Both the position numbers and the translations under genes were made by a program. Under the pieces are notes generated by a model that made no database searches, was not told where the DNA came from, and worked only from the letters and a program-made list of their open reading frames with translations. Below are positions 26,086 through 33,811 of a stretch of 64,000 bases of DNA, piece by piece; position 1 is the first letter of the stretch, and each line of letters begins with the position of its first letter. Location: the NCBI GenBank assembly GCA_963668695.2, contig CAXXLQ010000004.1, positions 1,024,001 through 1,088,000 of the forward strand. The letters run 5' to 3'. The stretch is from Vicinamibacteria bacterium (GTDB lineage Bacteria; Acidobacteriota; Vicinamibacteria; Marinacidobacterales; Marinacidobacteraceae).

Positions 26086-26194
26086 GAAAGGCAGCCGGAA
26101 AACCCTTGAAGTGACAGAATAGCGTTTCGCCGTTCGCGGAATGGCACCGCTGGCAGGGGTCATGCGGGGCGTTGCCGTAGAATCCGCCGCCTTC

Positions 26195-27529
26195 ATGACA
26201 AAAACGGGATTTACGGTTCAACCCGCAGACGGTGGCCTCATCGTGCTGCTCCCCGGCCTTGGGGCAGTCAGCACGACGTTCATCGCTGGAATTCACGCGA
26301 TTCGCAAGGGGCTTGCCGCACCCATCGGGTCGGTGACCCAGATGGCAACGATCCGGCTGGGCAAGCGCACGGAAGGTCGGACCCCCCTGATTCGGGACTT
26401 CGTTCCCATCGTCCCGATCGAGGATCTTTCCTTCGCGGCGTGGGACCTGTTCGAGGACGATGCCTATACCGCGGCGCAGAAGGCCGGGGTACTCGAACCG
26501 GCGCTGCTCGATGCGGTCCGGGAGGAACTGGCGGAAATCCGTCCGATGCCGGCGGTCTTCGATCGCGATTTCGTGAAGAATCTCGACGGCTCGTTCGTCA
26601 AGTCGGGCGCCACCAAGATGGACCTGGCGGACCAGCTCATCGAGGACATCGAGCGTGTCCGGAAAGCATCGGGGGCCGCGCGGGCGGTGATGATCTGGTG
26701 CGGCTCAACGGAGACCTTCCTGGCCGAGGCGCCTGTCCACCGGGACCTCGAGAGCTTCGAGGAGGGGCTCCGCACCAATTCGCCCGATATCGCACCCAGC
26801 ATGATCTATGCGTACGCGGCTCTGCGCTGCGGGGTCCCCTACGCGAACGGGGCTCCGAACCTCAGCGCCGACATTCCGGCACTTCGTGAACTGGCGTCGG
26901 CCCGTGGCGTCCCGGTAGGCGGCAAGGATTTCAAGACCGGGCAAACGCTCATGAAGACGATCCTGGCCCCCGGGCTGAAGGCCAGGATGCTCGGCCTGCA
27001 CGGCTGGTTCTCCACGAACATCCTCGGCAATCGGGACGGCGAGGTGCTTGATGATCCCGGTTCTTTCAAGACCAAGGAAGAAAGCAAGCTGAGCGTGCTG
27101 GAGTACATCCTCCAGCCGGACATGTATCCCGACCTGTACGGCCACTTCTACCACAAGGTGCGCATCAACTATTACCCGCCCCGGCGCGACAACAAGGAAG
27201 GTTGGGACAACATCGACATCTTCGGCTGGCTCGGCTACGAAATGCAGATCAAGGTGGATTTCCTCTGCCGCGATTCCATCCTCGCCGCCCCGCTCGTGCT
27301 CGATCTCGCCCTCTTCCTCGACCTCGCCTCGCGCGCCGGTCTCCGTGGGATCCAGGAGTGGTTGTCGTTCTTCTTCAAGAGTCCCATGAGCCCGCCGGGG
27401 GTGTATCCGGAACACGACCTCTTCATCCAGCGAAAGAAGATGACCAATACGCTTCGTTATCTCATGGGAGAAGAGGTCATCAGCCACCTCGGCGAATACA
27501 CTCTGGAGACGAGGGAAACGTCGGACTGA
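26195..27529 (+). CDS. ino1: Inositol-3-phosphate synthase
   Basis: GLGAV, GKDFKTGQT, NILGNRDG, DNKEGWD and RDSILAAP motifs. Confidence 0.93.
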   Translation: MTKTGFTVQPADGGLIVLLPGLGAVSTTFIAGIHAIRKGLAAPIGSVTQMATIRLGKRTEGRTPLIRDFVPIVPIEDLSFAAWDLFEDDAYTAAQKAGVLEPALLDAVREELAEIRPMPAVFDRDFVKNLDGSFVKSGATKMDLADQLIEDIERVRKASGAARAVMIWCGSTETFLAEAPVHRDLESFEEGLRTNSPDIAPSMIYAYAALRCGVPYANGAPNLSADIPALRELASARGVPVGGKDFKTGQTLMKTILAPGLKARMLGLHGWFSTNILGNRDGEVLDDPGSFKTKEESKLSVLEYILQPDMYPDLYGHFYHKVRINYYPPRRDNKEGWDNIDIFGWLGYEMQIKVDFLCRDSILAAPLVLDLALFLDLASRAGLRGIQEWLSFFFKSPMSPPGVYPEHDLFIQRKKMTNTLRYLMGEEVISHLGEYTLETRETSD

Positions 27530-27532
27530 TCC

Positions 27533-28324
27533 ATGCAGATCTCGAAGAGTCGCTGCGTCGGCTGCGGGAACTGCGTAGCGGTCTGTCCGGTGTCGGCCAT
27601 CAGTATCGGTGACGACGGGCGGGCGGTGGTGAACAGCGACCAGTGCGTCGAGTGCTACACCTGCTACCGCGGGCTCAGCACCGAGCGGCTGAACCCAACG
27701 CTCATCCGAACCGTCCGGCGGGTACTCGGCTGGGTGCGACTCCGCTTCGACCCGGAGCCGGACATTTGTCCGACATCGGCGATCGAACCCGAGGAACTCG
27801 CATGGCCGCGCGTGGTGCGACGCGCCTTCAGCGATCCGCTCGTTTCCCACGAGGCCACCGGCGTCCACGGCCGGGGGACCGAGGAAGTCAAGACGAACGA
27901 CGTGACCGGCAGAGTCTCGGTCGGCGAATGCGGGATGACGGTGGAGTTCGGCCGACCCGGGGTGACCGCAAGTTTCGCCGACATGGACCGGGTTACCCGT
28001 CGGCTGGCGGCGCTCGGCGTGCACTTCGAGCAGAAAAATCCCGTCACCAACCTGATGAGCGACGTTGCGACCGGCGCGATCCGGGAGGATCTGCTCGGCG
28101 AACGGGTCCTTTCGGCAATCGTGGAAATCAAGGTCAACCTGGACCAGGTTCCCGCGGTGATGAAGGAAGTGGAGGCTGCCGCCGCCGATTCGGAGACGAT
28201 CATTTCCGTGGGCGCCGCCACTCGCTGCGGCCCGGACGGCGAGGACACCCTCGGGGCGCTGCTGCGCGAGCACGGATACACCGCTTTTCGGGGCAAGACC
28301 AACCTCGGGCTCGGCCGGGCGTAG
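27533..28324 (+). CDS. 4Fe-4S binding protein with an uncharacterised C-terminal domain
   Basis: CVGCGNCVAVCP and CVECYTC...CP; GRGTEEVKTNDVTGR block. Confidence 0.8.
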   Translation: MQISKSRCVGCGNCVAVCPVSAISIGDDGRAVVNSDQCVECYTCYRGLSTERLNPTLIRTVRRVLGWVRLRFDPEPDICPTSAIEPEELAWPRVVRRAFSDPLVSHEATGVHGRGTEEVKTNDVTGRVSVGECGMTVEFGRPGVTASFADMDRVTRRLAALGVHFEQKNPVTNLMSDVATGAIREDLLGERVLSAIVEIKVNLDQVPAVMKEVEAAAADSETIISVGAATRCGPDGEDTLGALLREHGYTAFRGKTNLGLGRA

Positions 28325-28341: not shown

Positions 28342-29496
28342 TCAGGCGCCCAGCACCGCGACGAGCGCCTCGACTACCTCATCCAATTCCGCCTCGGTAA
28401 TCACCAGCGGGGGCAGCAGCCGGATCACGGTTGCGCCTGCCGGCAGCGCCAGCACCCCCTTTTCCATCAATGCGGTCAAGTACGGGCGGCAGCGCTCCCG
28501 GAGTTCGATACCGATCATCAACCCCGTCTGGCGCACCGCGCGGACCCGCGCGGGCCGCTGATCGGCGAATCGCTCGCTGAACCGGGCGCCCAGCGTCTCC
28601 GCCCGGTCGGCCAAGCGCTCGTCTTCCATGAACTGGATCGCGGCAAGCGCCGCGGCGCATGCGAGCGGATTGCCGCCGAACGTGGTCCCGTGCTTGCCGA
28701 CGAGCGGCGGTAGCCGGTCACCCGCCAGCACCGCACCCATGGGCACGCCTCCGGCGATGGCTTTCGCCAGGCAAAGCAGATCGGGCTCCACTCCGTGGCG
28801 TTCGCAGGCGAACATCCGGCCGGTCCGGCAAAAGCCGGTCTGCGACTCGTCGAGAATCAGCAACGCGCCGGTCTCGTCGCAGAGGGCACGGACGGCGCGC
28901 AGGTAGCCGGCCTCGGCCGGCCGCACCCCGCCCTCCCCCTGGACTGGCTCCAGCACGACGGCCGCGGTGCCTTCGCCGACCGCGGCCCGCATCTTCTCGG
29001 CATCGTTGAACGGGACGAATGAAAACCCCGGCACCAGCGGGGCAAAGGGTTCCCGGTAATCCTTCCGGAACGTTGCGCTCAGGGCTCCCATCGTGCGGCC
29101 GTGGAACCCGCGCATGGCGGAGACGATCCCGGTGCGGCCGGTGGCGACGCGGGCGAACTTGAGGGCCGCCTCCACCGCCTCCGCTCCCGAGTTGCAAAGA
29201 AAGGCGCGCGTCAGGCCCGGCGGCGCGATGGAAGCCAGCTTCTCCAGGAGAAGGGCGCGCTGGTCGTTGTAGAAGATTCCCGGGCAGGTCACCAGCGTCC
29301 GCGCCTGATCGGCGATCGCCCGCGCGACCGCGGGGTTGGCGTGCCCGATGCTCGCCACTCCGATACCGGCCACGCAGTCGAGATAGCGGCGGCCCCGATC
29401 GTCCCAGACCTCGGCGCCCTTCCCCCGCACGAGCGTCAGGTCGCGCTTCGGGTAGACCTCGAGCCCCCACGTCCGCTCGGCCTCCTGGAAGTTCAC
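28342..29496 (-). CDS. lysJ: [LysW]-aminoadipate semialdehyde / acetylornithine-type aminotransferase
   Basis: Class III PLP motifs FHGRT, EPVQGEGG, DESQTG, LAKAIAGG and HGTTFGGNP; LysW operon context. Confidence 0.85.
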   Translation of the reverse strand: MNFQEAERTWGLEVYPKRDLTLVRGKGAEVWDDRGRRYLDCVAGIGVASIGHANPAVARAIADQARTLVTCPGIFYNDQRALLLEKLASIAPPGLTRAFLCNSGAEAVEAALKFARVATGRTGIVSAMRGFHGRTMGALSATFRKDYREPFAPLVPGFSFVPFNDAEKMRAAVGEGTAAVVLEPVQGEGGVRPAEAGYLRAVRALCDETGALLILDESQTGFCRTGRMFACERHGVEPDLLCLAKAIAGGVPMGAVLAGDRLPPLVGKHGTTFGGNPLACAAALAAIQFMEDERLADRAETLGARFSERFADQRPARVRAVRQTGLMIGIELRERCRPYLTALMEKGVLALPAGATVIRLLPPLVITEAELDEVVEALVAVLGA

Positions 29497-30302
29497 TCGA
29501 TCACCGTTCCCCGTCCGGCCAGAGCATCCCGAACCGGATGCGCGACGCGTCCGTCGCCGATCACCACGGGGGTTCCCCCCGTTCCCCTGGATCCCCCGGT
29601 TCCGACCAGTCGGCTCAGCGCGAGCATTTTCCGCTTCATACGGCCCGTTACCAGCGCCTCCCGGCGCAGAACCTCGGCGGAGGACATGCGCGGGACGAGC
29701 GAGGCAGGGTCATTCTCATCCTCCAGAAATCCGGGCGCTTCGATCAACTGGATGACCCGCTCGGCCGGGAACGCCGCGTTGAGCACCCCCACGATGTCGT
29801 CGTTCTCCGAATTGATGGCGAAGCCGCGTTCATCGAGGATGGGAACGGTCAGGACCGGCGCCAGACCGCTGTCCAGCAGGAGTCGGAGCAATCCGACATT
29901 CACCTCGGCGGGCTTTCCCGACAGGTCGCGCTTGATGAGGGTCTTCCCGCCCTCCCGGACGCGGATTCCCCGGTTCCTCCTGCCCCGAACCAGTGCGCCG
30001 TCGAGGCCCGTGAGACCGATGGCGTTCACGCCGCGCCGCTGCAACAACTCCACGATCCTCTTGTTCCGCAGTCCGGCGTAGGCCATGAGGATGAGATCGA
30101 CGGCCGAGGCGTCCGAGTACACGCTCGCGTAGCCGGACACCGAAGTAAGCACCCGCTTCTCGATGCCGAGCCGCCGGCCGAGCTCGTCGCGCAGGGCATT
30201 CGCGCCATGCACGATCACGAACGGCGATGGGACCTCGGCGAGGTCGGAGGCGATTCCTTCCAGGTTGATGGACGCTCCGCCGCCGATCTTGATCAGCAGC
30301 AT
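29493..30302 (-). CDS. lysZ: [LysW]-aminoadipate/glutamate kinase
   Basis: IKIGG, VHGAN, SVSG..S.Y.D and GRMKRK motifs. Confidence 0.88.
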   Translation of the reverse strand: MLLIKIGGGASINLEGIASDLAEVPSPFVIVHGANALRDELGRRLGIEKRVLTSVSGYASVYSDASAVDLILMAYAGLRNKRIVELLQRRGVNAIGLTGLDGALVRGRRNRGIRVREGGKTLIKRDLSGKPAEVNVGLLRLLLDSGLAPVLTVPILDERGFAINSENDDIVGVLNAAFPAERVIQLIEAPGFLEDENDPASLVPRMSSAEVLRREALVTGRMKRKMLALSRLVGTGGSRGTGGTPVVIGDGRVAHPVRDALAGRGTVIE

Positions 30303-30327
30303 GTCGCGGCCACTTCGGTTGAGCGCA

Positions 30328-30975
30328 TCAAAAGGAGCGGACCGTGCCGTTCGCGATGGGTGTCCATTCCGTCGGAGCGCCGAGCGCCGGATAGGGTTCG
30401 GAGCACACGACCCGGACGTCGCCGATGGTGGCGCGGCGCATCTGAAAGTAGTCCGGATCCTCGTTGAAGCGGCTGGCCACGGTGACCCGGCGCGAGGCAT
30501 CCGCCACGATGACATTCATCGCCCGGACGTAGCGGGTGCGTTTCTCGATCAGCTTCAATCCCCGTGCGAGGGCGTGGCGCATGTCACCGCGGTCGAACCG
30601 CTTGACGAAGTTGAAGACCTTCTCGGCGCCGATGCGCCCCTGTTCCCGGATGCGCACTCCCCGAAGTTCCCCGTTGAACAGGAACACGCGCTCGCCGTCA
30701 AAAAACGGCATGTTGTTCTCAACGCGGATCCCCTCGTTGCGGAACGCGCTCCGCGCGTGGGCCAGCAGCAGCGGCGTGCGACCGCGGGGTCGATTCCGGT
30801 CTTCCCAGATGGGGGTAATGCTGCGGTAGATGCGCCAGCCGCCTCCTTCGAGCCAGGCGCAACCCCAGCCATGCCCCTGGAACTCCCGGCTGTTTTTCGC
30901 GACCTCGCTGAACGCCGCCAGATGATCCTGCACGTCGAACTCCTCCTCGCCGCGGACGCATAGGAGACGGCACAT
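30328..30975 (-). CDS. Class II glutamine amidotransferase-like Ntn hydrolase (YafJ/EgtC/Dug3-like)
   Basis: Met-Cys start MCRLL, HGWG, AHARSA, N.MPF and FNG; stand-alone, 215 aa. Confidence 0.8.
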   Translation of the reverse strand: MCRLLCVRGEEEFDVQDHLAAFSEVAKNSREFQGHGWGCAWLEGGGWRIYRSITPIWEDRNRPRGRTPLLLAHARSAFRNEGIRVENNMPFFDGERVFLFNGELRGVRIREQGRIGAEKVFNFVKRFDRGDMRHALARGLKLIEKRTRYVRAMNVIVADASRRVTVASRFNEDPDYFQMRRATIGDVRVVCSEPYPALGAPTEWTPIANGTVRSF

Positions 30976-31006
30976 GGGAAGGATGCCCCGGTCGGCGGGC
31001 GTTCCC

Positions 31007-32032
31007 TCAGATCGGATGGAGGCCGGCGAACTCCAGCCCGGCCGTCTCCGGAAACCCGTACATCAGGTTGAACGCATGCGCAGCCTGCCCGGCCGCCCCC
31101 TTCATCAGGTTGTCCAGGGCGCTCATGGCCACGATCCGGTTCGTGTGCGGATCGCGCTCGAACCCCACATCGCAGAAGTTCGTGCCCGCGAGGATCTTGG
31201 GGTCCGGGTAGCGGTGGATGCCGCTGTGCCCCTTCACGACGCGAACGAAGGGCTCCCCCGCGTAGGCGTCGCGATAGATCTTCCAAAGCGCCTGGTCGTT
31301 CAGCGCCCGATCCGTGAACACATGGCAGGTCGCCAGCACCCCGCGCACCATTTCGATCGAGGTGGCGGAGAAGTGGAGTTTGTCGATCCCCAGGGCCTCG
31401 GCGATCTCGCCCTGATGGCGGTGCCCGGTGGGCTTGAAAGCGCGCGCTGCTCCGCTCCGCTCGGGATGATGGCTCGCCGCGGTCGCCCGATTGCCGGCTT
31501 CACTGGATCCGACCAGGACTTCGATCACCGCCGATTCGACCCCTCCGGCATCGCACAGCGGCTTGAGCGCCAGGATGGCGGCCGTCGCGTTGCACCCGGC
31601 GCAGGCCACCAGCTCCGCATCCCTCAGCGCCTCCCGATTCAGTTCCGGAATCCCGTAGACAAAGCGGCCGAGAAGATCCGGGCAGGGATGCGGTCCACCG
31701 TACCAACGCTCGTAGGCCGCGGTTTCCCGCAACCGAAAATCGGCGCCCAGATCGATGACCCGACCGGCGATGCGCCGGAAGTCCTGCATGCGGCGCGCCG
31801 ATTCGCCGTGCGGCAGGCAGACGAAGAGCGCGTCGCAACGGGAAAGGCGGTCCAGCTCGCAGAACCGCAGCCGGGTGGCGCCGCGGAGGTTCGGATGGAC
31901 GCCGTGCGCGTACTTCCCGGCGAGGCGTTCGGAGGAGATGTCGGCTACCTCGACCTCGGGGTGGCCAAGCATCAGACGCAGCAACTCGCCGCCCGCGTAT
32001 CCCGAGGCACCGGCGATGGAGACGCGGATCAT
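31007..32032 (-). CDS. lysY: [LysW]-aminoadipyl-phosphate / N-acetylglutamyl-phosphate reductase
   Basis: [28 protein letters not shown] and DNLMKGAAG motifs. Confidence 0.88.
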
Positions 32033-32865
32033 CGGTCCGGCGACAGGAGGTAGGACACGATCTTCTCCGGGATGTTCACTCCCGTGACGTCAATGCTGTT
32101 CCGGAACTCCATCGTGTAGTTGACCTCGTTGACCAGGAGTCCGTCCCCGGTCTCGAAGAGGTCCACCGCGAGGACGCCGCCGCCCACCGCCTCCGCGGCC
32201 CTGAGCGATATCTCGGCGAGCTCGCTGGTCACCGGACAATTGGAGGTCCGCCCGCCGCGGGCGGTGTTCGTGATCCAGTGCTCCGATGTCCGATAGACGG
32301 CGGCAATGCACTCATCCCCGACCACAAAGCTGCGGATGTCCCGCCCGCCCTTCTCCACATACTTCTGAGCAAAGAAGATCGAGTGGTGGTAGCTGCCGAG
32401 GATCGCCTTGTGCTCGATCACGGTTTCGGCCGCCTCCCGATCATTGATCCGGGAAAGCAGCCGCCCCCAGGATCCGACCGCCGGCTTCAGCACCACCGGA
32501 TAGCCGAGCTGTTCGATGGCTTCCAGGGTGGAGCCTTCGGTAAACGCGACCCGCGTTTCCGGCTGGGGCACTCCGAACTCCTGCAGCGCGACGGCAGTCA
32601 GGATCTTGTCGCCGCACTTGCGGGCGACTTCGTAGCGGTTGATGCATTCGATGCCCACGCTCTCGAAAAGCCGCAAGGCGTGCATCGCCCGAGAATGATT
32701 GATGCTTCGCTCGAGGACGATGTCCACCTCGGGTCGCGCCCGGAGGTCGAACACCAGCCGCCGGTCATCGAGAAGGACCAACTCGACACCGGGGCGACTT
32801 CGCAGCTCCCGGAGGAGGAGTTTTTCTTCTGGACGAATCAGCGAATGAAGGAAGCCGACCCTCAT
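32029..32865 (-). CDS. lysX: ATP-grasp LysW ligase LysX
   Basis: [25 protein letters not shown] and NEVNYTMEF motifs. Confidence 0.92.
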
Positions 32866-33026
32866 TCACCCCAATCCTCTTCCGCCTCGGGGGCCTCGCC
32901 CAGGACGATCGGGTCCAGAGCCAGAATCTCGAGTTCGCTGCCGCACTCCGGACACTCAAGGAGCTCGCTTTCGACCGGGTCGTCAGATATGTCCACCGCG
33001 CCGCCGCACACCGGGCAGTTCGTCAT
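32862..33026 (-). CDS. lysW: Amino-group carrier protein LysW
   Basis: 54 aa, CPVC...CPEC zinc finger, C-terminal EDWGE; RBS ggaga. Confidence 0.95.
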
Positions 33027-33154: not shown

Positions 33155-33811
33155 CTACTCCCGCAGGATGCGGCAGGCGCGGGTGGTGTTGAAAATTCCG
33201 CAGGAGCAGAAGCGCGCCATCGTCTCCGCGCACTCTTCCGGGGAACGCCGCCCGGTCCGTACCCAATCCAGCATCTTCCGGGCAAACCCGAAAGAGAGCA
33301 TCCCGTGTCCGCACATCGTGGAAAGCTGGAGCGTGGCGCGGTCCGGAAGCCGGTCCAGGTTCCCGAAGAATCCCAGGCTGTACTCGACGCTGTGCCGCAC
33401 GATTCCGGCCTCCTTGGCCAGTGCGGCGGCGCGATCAGTCAGGCCGCTGATATTGACGCTGATGCCGAGGTCGGCTTCCTTCAGGTCCGCGAGGACCGCG
33501 ACCAGCGCTTCTTCGGTGTCGAATACCGCTGAAACCACGGTCGGGGCATCCACGCCCTTGCGAATCGCGTCGGCAGCCAGCCGCTTCCGCCGCCGCCAAT
33601 GCGCCAGCGGGTTGAGCCGGGAAGAACGGAAGATCCCTCCCTTGGTCGCGTCCCCCAGATTGATGGGGCCGTGCCGCAGGGCGATCTCGGTGAATCGCCG
33701 CAGCTTCTCCGGGGACCCCTCGTCGTTGATCCCCCGCGCCGCCATCGCGAACACGATGAAGTCGTCCTTCAGGGTCTCCGGCGCGCCGTAGCGGTGGAGG
33801 GTGTTCGTCAT
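33155..33811 (-). CDS. Hypothetical protein with a Cys/His-rich C-terminus
   Basis: Starts MTNTLHRYG; motifs STMCGHGM and CSCGIFN suggest metal binding. Confidence 0.7.
   Translation of the reverse strand: MTNTLHRYGAPETLKDDFIVFAMAARGINDEGSPEKLRRFTEIALRHGPINLGDATKGGIFRSSRLNPLAHWRRRKRLAADAIRKGVDAPTVVSAVFDTEEALVAVLADLKEADLGISVNISGLTDRAAALAKEAGIVRHSVEYSLGFFGNLDRLPDRATLQLSTMCGHGMLSFGFARKMLDWVRTGRRSPEECAETMARFCSCGIFNTTRACRILRE

Follow-up and report, generated by a model that had tools for sequence, protein, structure and literature searches.

In a 64,000-nt stretch of DNA from a Vicinamibacteria bacterium (Acidobacteriota), here called the window (G000:C4:1024001–1088000, where G000 is the genome that carries it), we found a LysW carrier-protein operon that contains no LysK, the M20-family hydrolase that serves as the sixth, releasing enzyme of the LysW pathway. 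Inserted between lysY and lysZ is a gene (30328–30975, minus strand) for a 215-aa protein starting with MCRLL, a stand-alone cysteine N-terminal nucleophile (Cys-Ntn) hydrolase that is class II amidotransferase-like and EgtC-like. We propose that this protein is a LysW γ-amidase and that, as a Cys-Ntn amidohydrolase, it likely does the job of LysK in the operon. The original prediction, made from the window alone, had suggested just such a non-orthologous replacement of LysK by a cysteine Ntn hydrolase; mutual exclusivity of the two genes, the EgtC-like fold and the occurrence of LysW proteins ending in Gln now give this view comparative support, and we hold it to be the probable explanation. 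The LysW pathway variant with the Ntn enzyme is real and widespread.

The operon consists of six minus-strand genes in the tight order lysW-lysX-lysY-Ntn-lysZ-lysJ, just as first described, with 4-base overlaps at the lysW/lysX, lysX/lysY and lysZ/lysJ junctions and gaps of 31 bases between lysY and the Ntn gene and 25 bases between the Ntn gene and lysZ. The first gene, lysW (32862–33026), encodes a 54-aa zinc-ribbon amino-group carrier with four Cys residues and the C-terminus EDWGE (PF21344, 61.3 bits; TIGR01206, 56.4 bits, cut-off 53.2). It is followed by lysX (32029–32865) for the ATP-grasp ligase that loads the amino acid on the γ-carboxyl of the C-terminal Glu of LysW (TIGR02144, 332.3 bits, cut-off 275.6; PF22626 and PF08443) and by lysY (31007–32032) for the ArgC-family [LysW]-aminoadipyl/glutamyl-phosphate reductase (TIGR01850, 370.4 bits, cut-off 233.6). 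Beyond the Ntn gene lie lysZ (29493–30302), encoding the [LysW]-aminoadipate kinase (NF010659, 232.3 bits, cut-off 223), and lysJ (28342–29496), encoding a class III aminotransferase of the ArgD/LysJ family (PF00202, 375.9 bits; TIGR00707, 433.1 bits, cut-off 410; NF042418 LysJ_Th_th, 477.3 bits, below its cut-off of 700). All five standard proteins of the pathway are thereby present; LysW, LysX, LysY and LysZ exceed their NCBIfam cut-offs, and LysJ exceeds that of the ArgD subfamily only.

LysK was not found in the window, in G000 or in any other Ntn-bearing genome searched. None of the 22 genomic matches to the M20 domain (PF01546) falls inside the window, in line with the earlier remark that it lacks an M20-type LysK or ArgE. 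Two checks that the original prediction had proposed, a search of the genome for lysK and a test of mutual exclusivity between lysK and the Ntn gene, both turned out in its favor. A profile search of the whole of G000 with the LysK model TIGR01902 gave a best match of 82.8 bits, far under the cut-off of 163.1, and none of 14 genomes congeneric with G000 contained LysK over the cut-off. Among 41 related genomes searched with profiles for LysX, the Ntn gene and TIGR01902, LysX was over its cut-off in 22 and the Ntn gene was present in 22, with an overlap of 21; a further genome (G028) carries the Ntn gene with a partial LysX of 226.7 bits, below the cut-off. Counting this genome, 23 relatives bear LysX, 22 of them with the Ntn gene only and one (G032) with LysK only. 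The LysK of G032 was the sole TIGR01902 match over the cut-off among the 41 relatives (294 bits), and the operon of this genome reads lysW-lysX-lysY-lysZ-lysJ, with lysY abutting lysZ and no insert.

The same complementarity was seen at larger scale. Out of 301 Acidobacteriota genomes, evenly drawn and at least 85% complete, 33 carried LysX (counted at E ≤ 1e-60); 17 had the Ntn gene only and 16 LysK only, with none having both and none having neither. The 11 LysX genomes in a set of 151 Gemmatimonadota divided into nine with the Ntn gene only and two with LysK only (G413 and G464), and again no genome held both or neither. A search with TIGR01902 at E ≤ 1e-30 matched none of 36 further Ntn-bearing genomes, picked from Gemmatimonadota, Gammaproteobacteria, Spirochaetia and Vicinamibacteria, and recovered all four positive controls (Thermus, Deinococcus, Haloferax and Sulfolobus).

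One M20 protein of G000 (C4:2379391; 338 aa, adjoining fabF and mutY, with 82.8–87 bits to TIGR01902) was a candidate for a hidden LysK but was rejected: it stays under every NCBIfam cut-off, is nearest to DapE/ArgE, and is found in relatives lacking LysX and beside the true LysK of G032. Such proteins also underlie a rival explanation, in which the Ntn enzyme is a maturation deamidase converting Gln to Glu, or has an accessory role only, and the product is released by a promiscuous housekeeping M20 enzyme of the ArgE/DapE type. An M20 protein of about 338 aa with 77–101 bits to TIGR01902 occurs in most of the 41 relatives, that of G000 reaches 103 bits with the [LysW]-lysine hydrolase model NF003367, and Gln-ended LysW genes do exist; in addition, Thermus LysK and ArgE-type enzymes are called promiscuous in the accessible text of a recent paper (PMC12998189), which we count for this explanation. 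The presence of the same M20 protein next to true LysK in G032 does not make LysK dispensable there, and LysW ends in Glu in the window, in 64 of 72 LysW proteins from the loci closest to it and in 5 of 13 from Acidobacteriota Ntn-type operons, with the Ntn gene still kept. Deamidation alone cannot account for the retention of the Ntn gene, since operons with Glu-ended LysW keep it. We therefore regard release by a housekeeping M20 enzyme as unlikely and favor the Ntn enzyme as the LysK substitute.

A scan of species-representative (GTDB) genomes returned at least 540 loci with a relative of the Ntn gene, and the gene neighborhoods of the best 80 were compared within 8 kb. The Ntn proteins of these 80 loci are 57–96% identical to that of the window and come from Acidobacteriota, Gemmatimonadota (Longimicrobiales, Palauibacter), Spirochaetia, KSB1, Calditrichaceae and Gammaproteobacteria, the last represented by Woeseiaceae, Ectothiorhodospiraceae, Thioglobus and Acidiferrobacteraceae. 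The nearest loci that bear a name, at 96% and 92% identity, assign the window to 'Candidatus Marinacidobacterium'. LysW-pathway genes lie beside the Ntn gene in 79 of the 80 loci (LysY in 76, LysX in 74, LysW in 72, LysJ in 71 and LysZ in 70), and LysK, queried with the G032 protein, lies within 8 kb of it in none. The commonest order is that of the window. Three other Acidobacteriota lineages (L138, L140 and L143) instead read lysW-lysX-lysY-HCS-lysZ-lysJ-Ntn, where HCS is a homocitrate-synthase-like gene, and their terminal Ntn gene, whose product is about 30% identical to the window protein, occupies the slot of lysK in 14 whole LysK-type operons (L119–L134 apart from L127 and L130, whose sequences are cut after lysX). 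Ntn-type operons hold only the five standard genes and the Ntn gene, with no further acceptor-related gene conserved.

Split operons were observed in eight metagenome-assembled genomes of Gammaproteobacteria (L076, L084, L087, L094, L096, L097, L105 and L106), where lysW-lysX-(gap)-lysY-Ntn stay together at a distance of over 8 kb from lysZ and lysJ; LysW is Gln-ended in six of these eight. LysZ over its cut-off was found elsewhere in the genome in all five cases followed up, namely four split-operon genomes and the genome of locus L095. In locus L143 (G192 C70:10882–11622), the Ntn gene matches as two adjoining pieces (profile positions 1–79 and 63–208), which suggests a frameshift or an assembly error.

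To place the two operon types relative to each other, we used a tree of concatenated LysX, LysY, LysZ and LysJ from 49 operons, 14 of LysK type (all Acidobacteriota) and 35 of Ntn type, 22 of the latter being hand-picked from the 80 loci; it was computed by a quick method under LG+G4 after removal of rows with high-scoring segment pairs shorter than 80% of the query. A single branch, with a support of 100 in the Shimodaira–Hasegawa-like approximate likelihood-ratio test (SH-aLRT), splits the LysK-type from the Ntn-type operons, so that one change suffices. The operon types are interspersed among organismal families, with both present in family f3, and the operon of the window nests among operons of Gemmatimonadota and Gammaproteobacteria. 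Because the types are mixed among organismal families, whole operons have moved, with each recipient running the pathway without LysK, a pattern that supports an Ntn-type operon sufficient in itself.

The Ntn protein belongs to a distinct and compact family, as judged from its relatives. A word-indexed search of 90%-identity clusters returned 2854 proteins at E ≤ 0.001; the handful that bear names are annotated as "hypothetical protein" or "predicted glutamine amidotransferase". When representatives at 50% identity were searched exhaustively, 360 clusters matched at E ≤ 0.001 and 207 at E ≤ 1e-10, almost all with a length of 195–250 aa and an alignment starting at residue 1. No dedicated model for the family exists in Pfam or in NCBIfam (June 2026). 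The glutamine amidotransferase model GATase_4 (PF13230) matches the window protein at 17.6 bits, below the cut-off of 23, and few database relatives have a precomputed PF13230 match; no M20 domain match was found with Pfam or NCBIfam, which separates the protein from the LysK family. The EgtC equivalog model TIGR03442 gives 39.9 bits against a cut-off of 218.65, and the neighbors are lysY and lysZ, not egt genes, so that the protein falls outside the EgtC equivalog.

Structurally, the protein is a single 215-residue domain with no synthase domain and no partner gene. Its AlphaFold2 model, with a predicted local distance difference test score (pLDDT) of 96.5 and a predicted template modelling score (pTM) of 0.92, shows the four-layer αββα Ntn fold. 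The best matches in the PDB found with Foldseek were the EgtC structures 4zfj, 4zfk and 4zfl (TM scores of 0.75–0.80 at 18–20% identity), followed by the stand-alone proteins 1te5 and 3mdn and then by the glutaminase domains of PurF and GlmS, all with a probability of 1.00; a profile search of PDB sequences ranked 3mdn (1e-9) and EgtC (9e-7). These results bear out what the original prediction had stated, namely a Met-Cys start, class II glutamine amidotransferase features in the absence of a synthase domain, and kinship with hydrolases of γ-glutamyl amides such as EgtC.

Ten residues (C2, R3, G38, W57, R75, P90, N101, G113, G116 and Y176) are invariant in 43 aligned diverse members of the family, and the nucleophile Cys directly after the initiator Met is thus present in 43 of 43. 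The class II catalytic set includes, besides this Cys, the Arg of the HxR motif (R75, in HARSA) and the Asn-Gly pair N101/G102 (in FNGEL), of which G102 is nearly invariant. The Asp of the class II (S/T)D(S/T)E motif holds the free α-amino group of glutamine. In the profile alignment to 3mdn, GSTDSE of that protein corresponds to G-x-x-G-A-E, the Asp position being taken by the invariant Gly116, so the family departs from class II enzymes at this point. Given the role of the Asp in binding a free α-amino group, Gly116 in its place fits a LysW-type substrate, whose α-amino nitrogen sits in a peptide bond. In PurF, according to the accessible text of PMC7953260, Arg73, the counterpart of R75, contacts the α-carboxylate of a glutamine analog and the backbone nitrogen of Gly102 contacts its side-chain oxygen; the roles given here to R75 and the Asn-Gly pair follow from PurF. 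The Ntn protein is basic (pI 9.93, net charge +9), as are 27 of the 43 family members with a pI above 7 (family median 8.34), and LysW of the window has a net charge of −16; electrostatics of this kind would fit a pairing of the enzyme with LysW.

A line of evidence that the original prediction had not anticipated came from the C-termini of the carrier. LysW could be read at 72 of the best 80 loci, where it ends in Glu in 64 and in Gln (EDWGQ-stop) in 7, with one frameshifted; in Acidobacteriota Ntn-type operons 8 of 13 end in Gln and 5 in Glu, and in LysK-type operons all 17 of 17 end in Glu and none in Gln. On the operon tree the ends switch between Glu and Gln at least five times, always within the Ntn type. 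A scan of metagenome contigs seeded solely with back-translated EEDWGQ-stop returned 80 loci with 50 LysW tails among them; on the contigs reaching past lysZ/lysJ, the Ntn gene was present in 15 of 15 and LysK in 0 of 15, a sixteenth contig (L214) being cut inside lysZ. LysK was likewise found in none of 14 whole genomes with Gln-ended LysW. The frameshifted gene mentioned above (L044 5961–6101) departs from the lysW frame after about residue 34 into unrelated sequence and loses the EDWGE tail, probably through a frameshift or sequencing error in this metagenome-assembled genome.

Hydrolysis of the γ-amide of glutamine is the ancestral reaction of class II amidotransferase-type enzymes. The restriction of Gln ends to Ntn-type operons points to the same bond of LysW as the target of the Ntn enzyme. 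In Natrinema, the available account (PMC10433800) reports that the LysW substitution Glu54Ala abolishes arginine synthesis, making the terminal Glu an essential attachment point, and that Thermus, Sulfolobus, Thermococcus and Natrinema share the EDWGE motif. Since the terminal Glu is essential for attachment, Gln-ended LysW must be γ-deamidated before it can be loaded by LysX, and we infer that the Ntn enzyme probably also matures these carriers in addition to releasing the product.

The following mechanism would account for both reactions. Removal of Met1 would free Cys2 as the N-terminal nucleophile, which would attack the γ-carbonyl of the terminal residue of LysW, that is, the isopeptide of LysW-γ-lysine or LysW-γ-ornithine. 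Asn101 and Gly102 would stabilize the oxyanion, Arg75 would bind the free α-carboxylate of the terminal residue, and the LysW chain would pass through the space left by Gly116. Lysine or ornithine would depart as the leaving group, or ammonia in the case of a Gln end, and water would resolve the LysW-γ-glutamyl thioester to free LysW. A Gln-ended LysW would first be deamidated to the Glu form by this enzyme, which would open it to loading by LysX.

Cys-Ntn catalysis runs via a thioester acyl-enzyme open to attack by amines. This chemistry leaves room for an enzyme of the γ-glutamyl transpeptidase type, the second option of the original prediction, as a transamidase whose thioester is resolved by the α-amino group of aminoadipate, glutamate or another acceptor, so that the carrier is recharged without ATP or the product is handed on; a Gln-ended LysW would then be a pre-activated donor. 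Against this reading, the ATP-dependent loader LysX still accompanies the Ntn gene at 74 of 80 loci and in 15 of 15 Acidobacteriota Ntn-type operons. No additional acceptor-related gene is conserved in the operon, and EgtC, the closest solved relative, is deposited as a hydrolase. We consider a pure transamidase improbable, even a shade more so than release by an M20 enzyme. A mixed activity is also doubtful, on a par with the M20 explanation: here the α-amino group of the next aminoadipate or glutamate would attack the thioester formed from LysW-γ-lysine or a Gln end and so reload the carrier without ATP, leaving LysX as a starter or repair ligase only. Were this true, the operon would encode a carrier-protein pathway that recycles itself and starts from a pre-activated pro-carrier. 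Hydrolysis at the LysK step stays our preferred reading of the Ntn enzyme.

The identity of the released product was approached through the genes accompanying the operon. In 13 of 15 Acidobacteriota Ntn-type operons (L135–L148) an HMGL-family synthase gene lies between lysW and lysX or between lysY and lysZ (for example, L139 2407–3618 and L138 6332–7423); the best NCBIfam match of its product is homocitrate synthase at 280–310 bits, under the cut-off of 413. This operonic synthase suggests lysine, made via aminoadipate, as the product. The operon of the window and the 80 closest loci have no such gene, and no orthologue of it was found in G000, whose two HMGL-like genes are a LeuA (597 bits) and one without family assignment. 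G000 holds two ArgB/ArgC/ArgD-type gene sets, the LysW operon and a canonical argC-argD-argF′-argB cluster (C4:2194030–2198143, L269 4923–9303; argF′ encodes a carbamoyltransferase), along with lysA over its cut-off and dapA below it. At E ≤ 1e-40, dapA (TIGR00674) was found in none of the 25 genomes of family f1 (G000–G024), nine of which lack the LysW operon; being absent with and without the operon alike, it is uninformative about the product. LysX contains an Asn-Thr pair (WITNTARGG) that may correspond to the one reported in the aminoadipate-specific LysX of Sulfolobus.

Several of these observations would also suit an operon that makes some other amino compound on LysW, as in the carrier-protein pathways of actinomycete secondary metabolism, with the Ntn enzyme releasing that compound. 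The canonical arg cluster and the lysA gene of G000, its lack of a detected homocitrate synthase orthologue, and DapA over the cut-off in three Gammaproteobacteria carriers of the operon all lean that way. They are countered by the synthase, nearest to homocitrate synthase if below its cut-off, in 13 of 15 Acidobacteriota Ntn-type operons, by LysX, LysZ and LysY scoring over lysine-pathway cut-offs, by operons confined to the five standard genes and the Ntn gene, and by one genome (G045) in which LysY is the only ArgC-family gene. We judge this alternative very unlikely, the least probable of those considered here, and keep to an Ntn enzyme releasing lysine or ornithine.

The original prediction had also proposed modeling the enzyme together with the acidic LysW. 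A predicted complex of Ntn residues 2–215 with LysW, each supplied with its alignment, was graded as "weak support": its median score was 0.49, and the best of three controls reached 0.01. No fewer than 74% of contacts recurred between runs, and the pLDDT of the partner was 79 or more. Of 80 solved complexes, 58 attain the mark used, as do 2 of 110 mismatched pairs; this calibration is only rough since our own alignments were used. The pairing therefore passed, but in the range of scores up to 0.60 that holds just 7 of the 80 solved complexes and both passing mismatches. We treat the prediction as a small addition to the case.

Several points weigh against the proposal that the Ntn enzyme replaces LysK. 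The complementarity reflects a single ancient swap, passed on by inheritance and by the transfer of whole operons, instead of repeated independent replacement, and since the operon tree needs only that single swap, the complementarity counts are not to be read as a statistical test. The assembly of G000 is 91.7% complete with 9.3% contamination, so the absence of LysK there proves nothing by itself, although the 14 congeners agree, and the 17 Ntn-only Acidobacteriota genomes include the unpublished G222, without which the count is 16. Three Acidobacteriota genomes fall off the pattern (G102, with a partial Ntn gene and no LysX, G298 and G236). Every genome searched has a housekeeping M20 enzyme of the ArgE/DapE type, which might in principle carry out the release. 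L095 is the only one of the 80 loci that has the Ntn gene with no pathway gene within 8 kb, the complex with LysW passed weakly and its interface is not reported, and the argument from Gly116 leans on a role ascribed to the class II Asp for which a literature search gave no usable source.

As to the genomes off the pattern, the LysK-like matches of G298 (324 bits) and of G236 (143 bits, partial), which occur without LysX at E ≤ 1e-60, may reflect an ArgE-like use of the family or assembly gaps. Four weak Ntn-like matches (E 1e-10 to 1e-12) in LysX-less Acidobacteriota genomes presumably represent other members of the superfamily.

The surroundings of the operon were examined for further members of the system. 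Directly upstream of lysW, a gene at 33155–33811 (minus strand) encodes a 218-aa protein without a Pfam match; it is 92–97% identical across 12 congeneric loci, more conserved there than the adjoining operon genes, and absent from the other 68 of 80 loci. On the other side, at 26141–28324 (plus strand), a gene of the myo-inositol-1-phosphate synthase family is followed after a 3-base gap by a gene whose 263-aa product has a 4Fe-4S ferredoxin domain at its N-terminus; the two genes are convergent with lysJ and are kept in 11 of 80 loci, all congeneric. Both the 218-aa gene and the inositol-phosphate synthase/ferredoxin pair were rejected as members of the system, their synteny being confined to the genus (12 and 11 of 80 loci, respectively). 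In four metatranscriptome libraries from two studies, contigs span both junctions of the Ntn gene and cover the gene in part; such contigs cannot show transcription, strand or level, and we gave them no weight.

The LysW carrier route by which lysine and arginine are made serves as a model of amino-acid pathway evolution, and its six steps were, to our knowledge, thought to be fixed. If our reading is correct, the Ntn protein would be a previously undescribed enzyme for release of the LysW product, and this release would depend on an enzyme unrelated to LysK at no fewer than 540 loci, spread over species-representative genomes of Acidobacteriota, Gemmatimonadota, Gammaproteobacteria, Spirochaetia and further groups. 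Tools for pathway prediction that demand LysK would then mis-score such organisms as lysine or arginine auxotrophs, and a function would fall to a protein family now labelled "hypothetical" or "predicted glutamine amidotransferase", which comprises 360 clusters at 50% identity. Full-text literature searches, whose coverage leaves out most subscription journals, found no description of a non-M20 LysW release enzyme or of a Gln-ended LysW, in keeping with the claim of novelty made at the outset. Within the accessible parts of the papers closest to the subject, a 2025 study of Thermus (PMC12998189) takes LysK as the hydrolase throughout, the 2026 GapMind paper lists only a diverged LysK in Nitrosopumilus, and a Deinococcus preprint mentions no alternative release enzyme or Gln-ended LysW.

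Compared with known systems, the Ntn enzyme shares with LysK (M20; TIGR01902, NF003367) the proposed reaction on the γ-glutamyl isopeptide of the LysW Glu, the operon context, a complementary phyletic pattern and, in some lineages, a place at the end of the operon. The two differ in fold and mechanism, which are unrelated, LysK being a di-metal M20 hydrolase and the Ntn enzyme using an N-terminal Cys nucleophile; the Ntn enzyme should also accept the primary amide of Gln-ended LysW, which the carboxypeptidase-type LysK would not be expected to do. EgtC (4zfj, 4zfk and 4zfl) resembles it as a stand-alone class II domain of about 220–235 aa that starts with MCR and cleaves a γ-glutamyl amide with a bulky amino-acid leaving group. 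Unlike EgtC, which has the low identity and model score given above and belongs to the egt cluster, the Ntn enzyme is encoded in a LysW operon, would use a protein C-terminus and not a free γ-glutamyl group as acyl donor, and has Gly116 at the Asp position of the 3mdn GSTDSE motif. The glutaminase domains of GlmS and PurF, together with 3mdn and 1te5, have the same Ntn fold, N-terminal Cys, HxR Arg and Asn-Gly oxyanion pair; the Ntn enzyme differs from them in lacking a synthase domain or partner gene, in the change of the TDSE-type Asp to Gly and in its sub-threshold GATase_4 score.

The closest parallel in logic is the Pup/Dop system. As described in the accessible text of PMC8599861, some actinobacteria encode a Gln-ended Pup, and Dop, a homologue of the ligase PafA with a glutamine-synthetase-like fold, deamidates this Gln to Glu and later cleaves the γ-glutamyl-lysine isopeptide. 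One enzyme thus both deamidates the encoded C-terminal Gln of a small acidic protein (PupQ, as opposed to PupE) and cleaves an isopeptide, a dual activity that we likewise infer for the Ntn enzyme, and species differ in coding Gln or Glu just as LysW ends alternate at least five times. The Ntn enzyme does not have the Dop-type fold and, unlike Dop with respect to PafA, is unrelated to its ligase LysX. If our proposal holds, the inactive Gln-ended carrier would represent a second case of the Pup/Dop logic, reached with a different fold.

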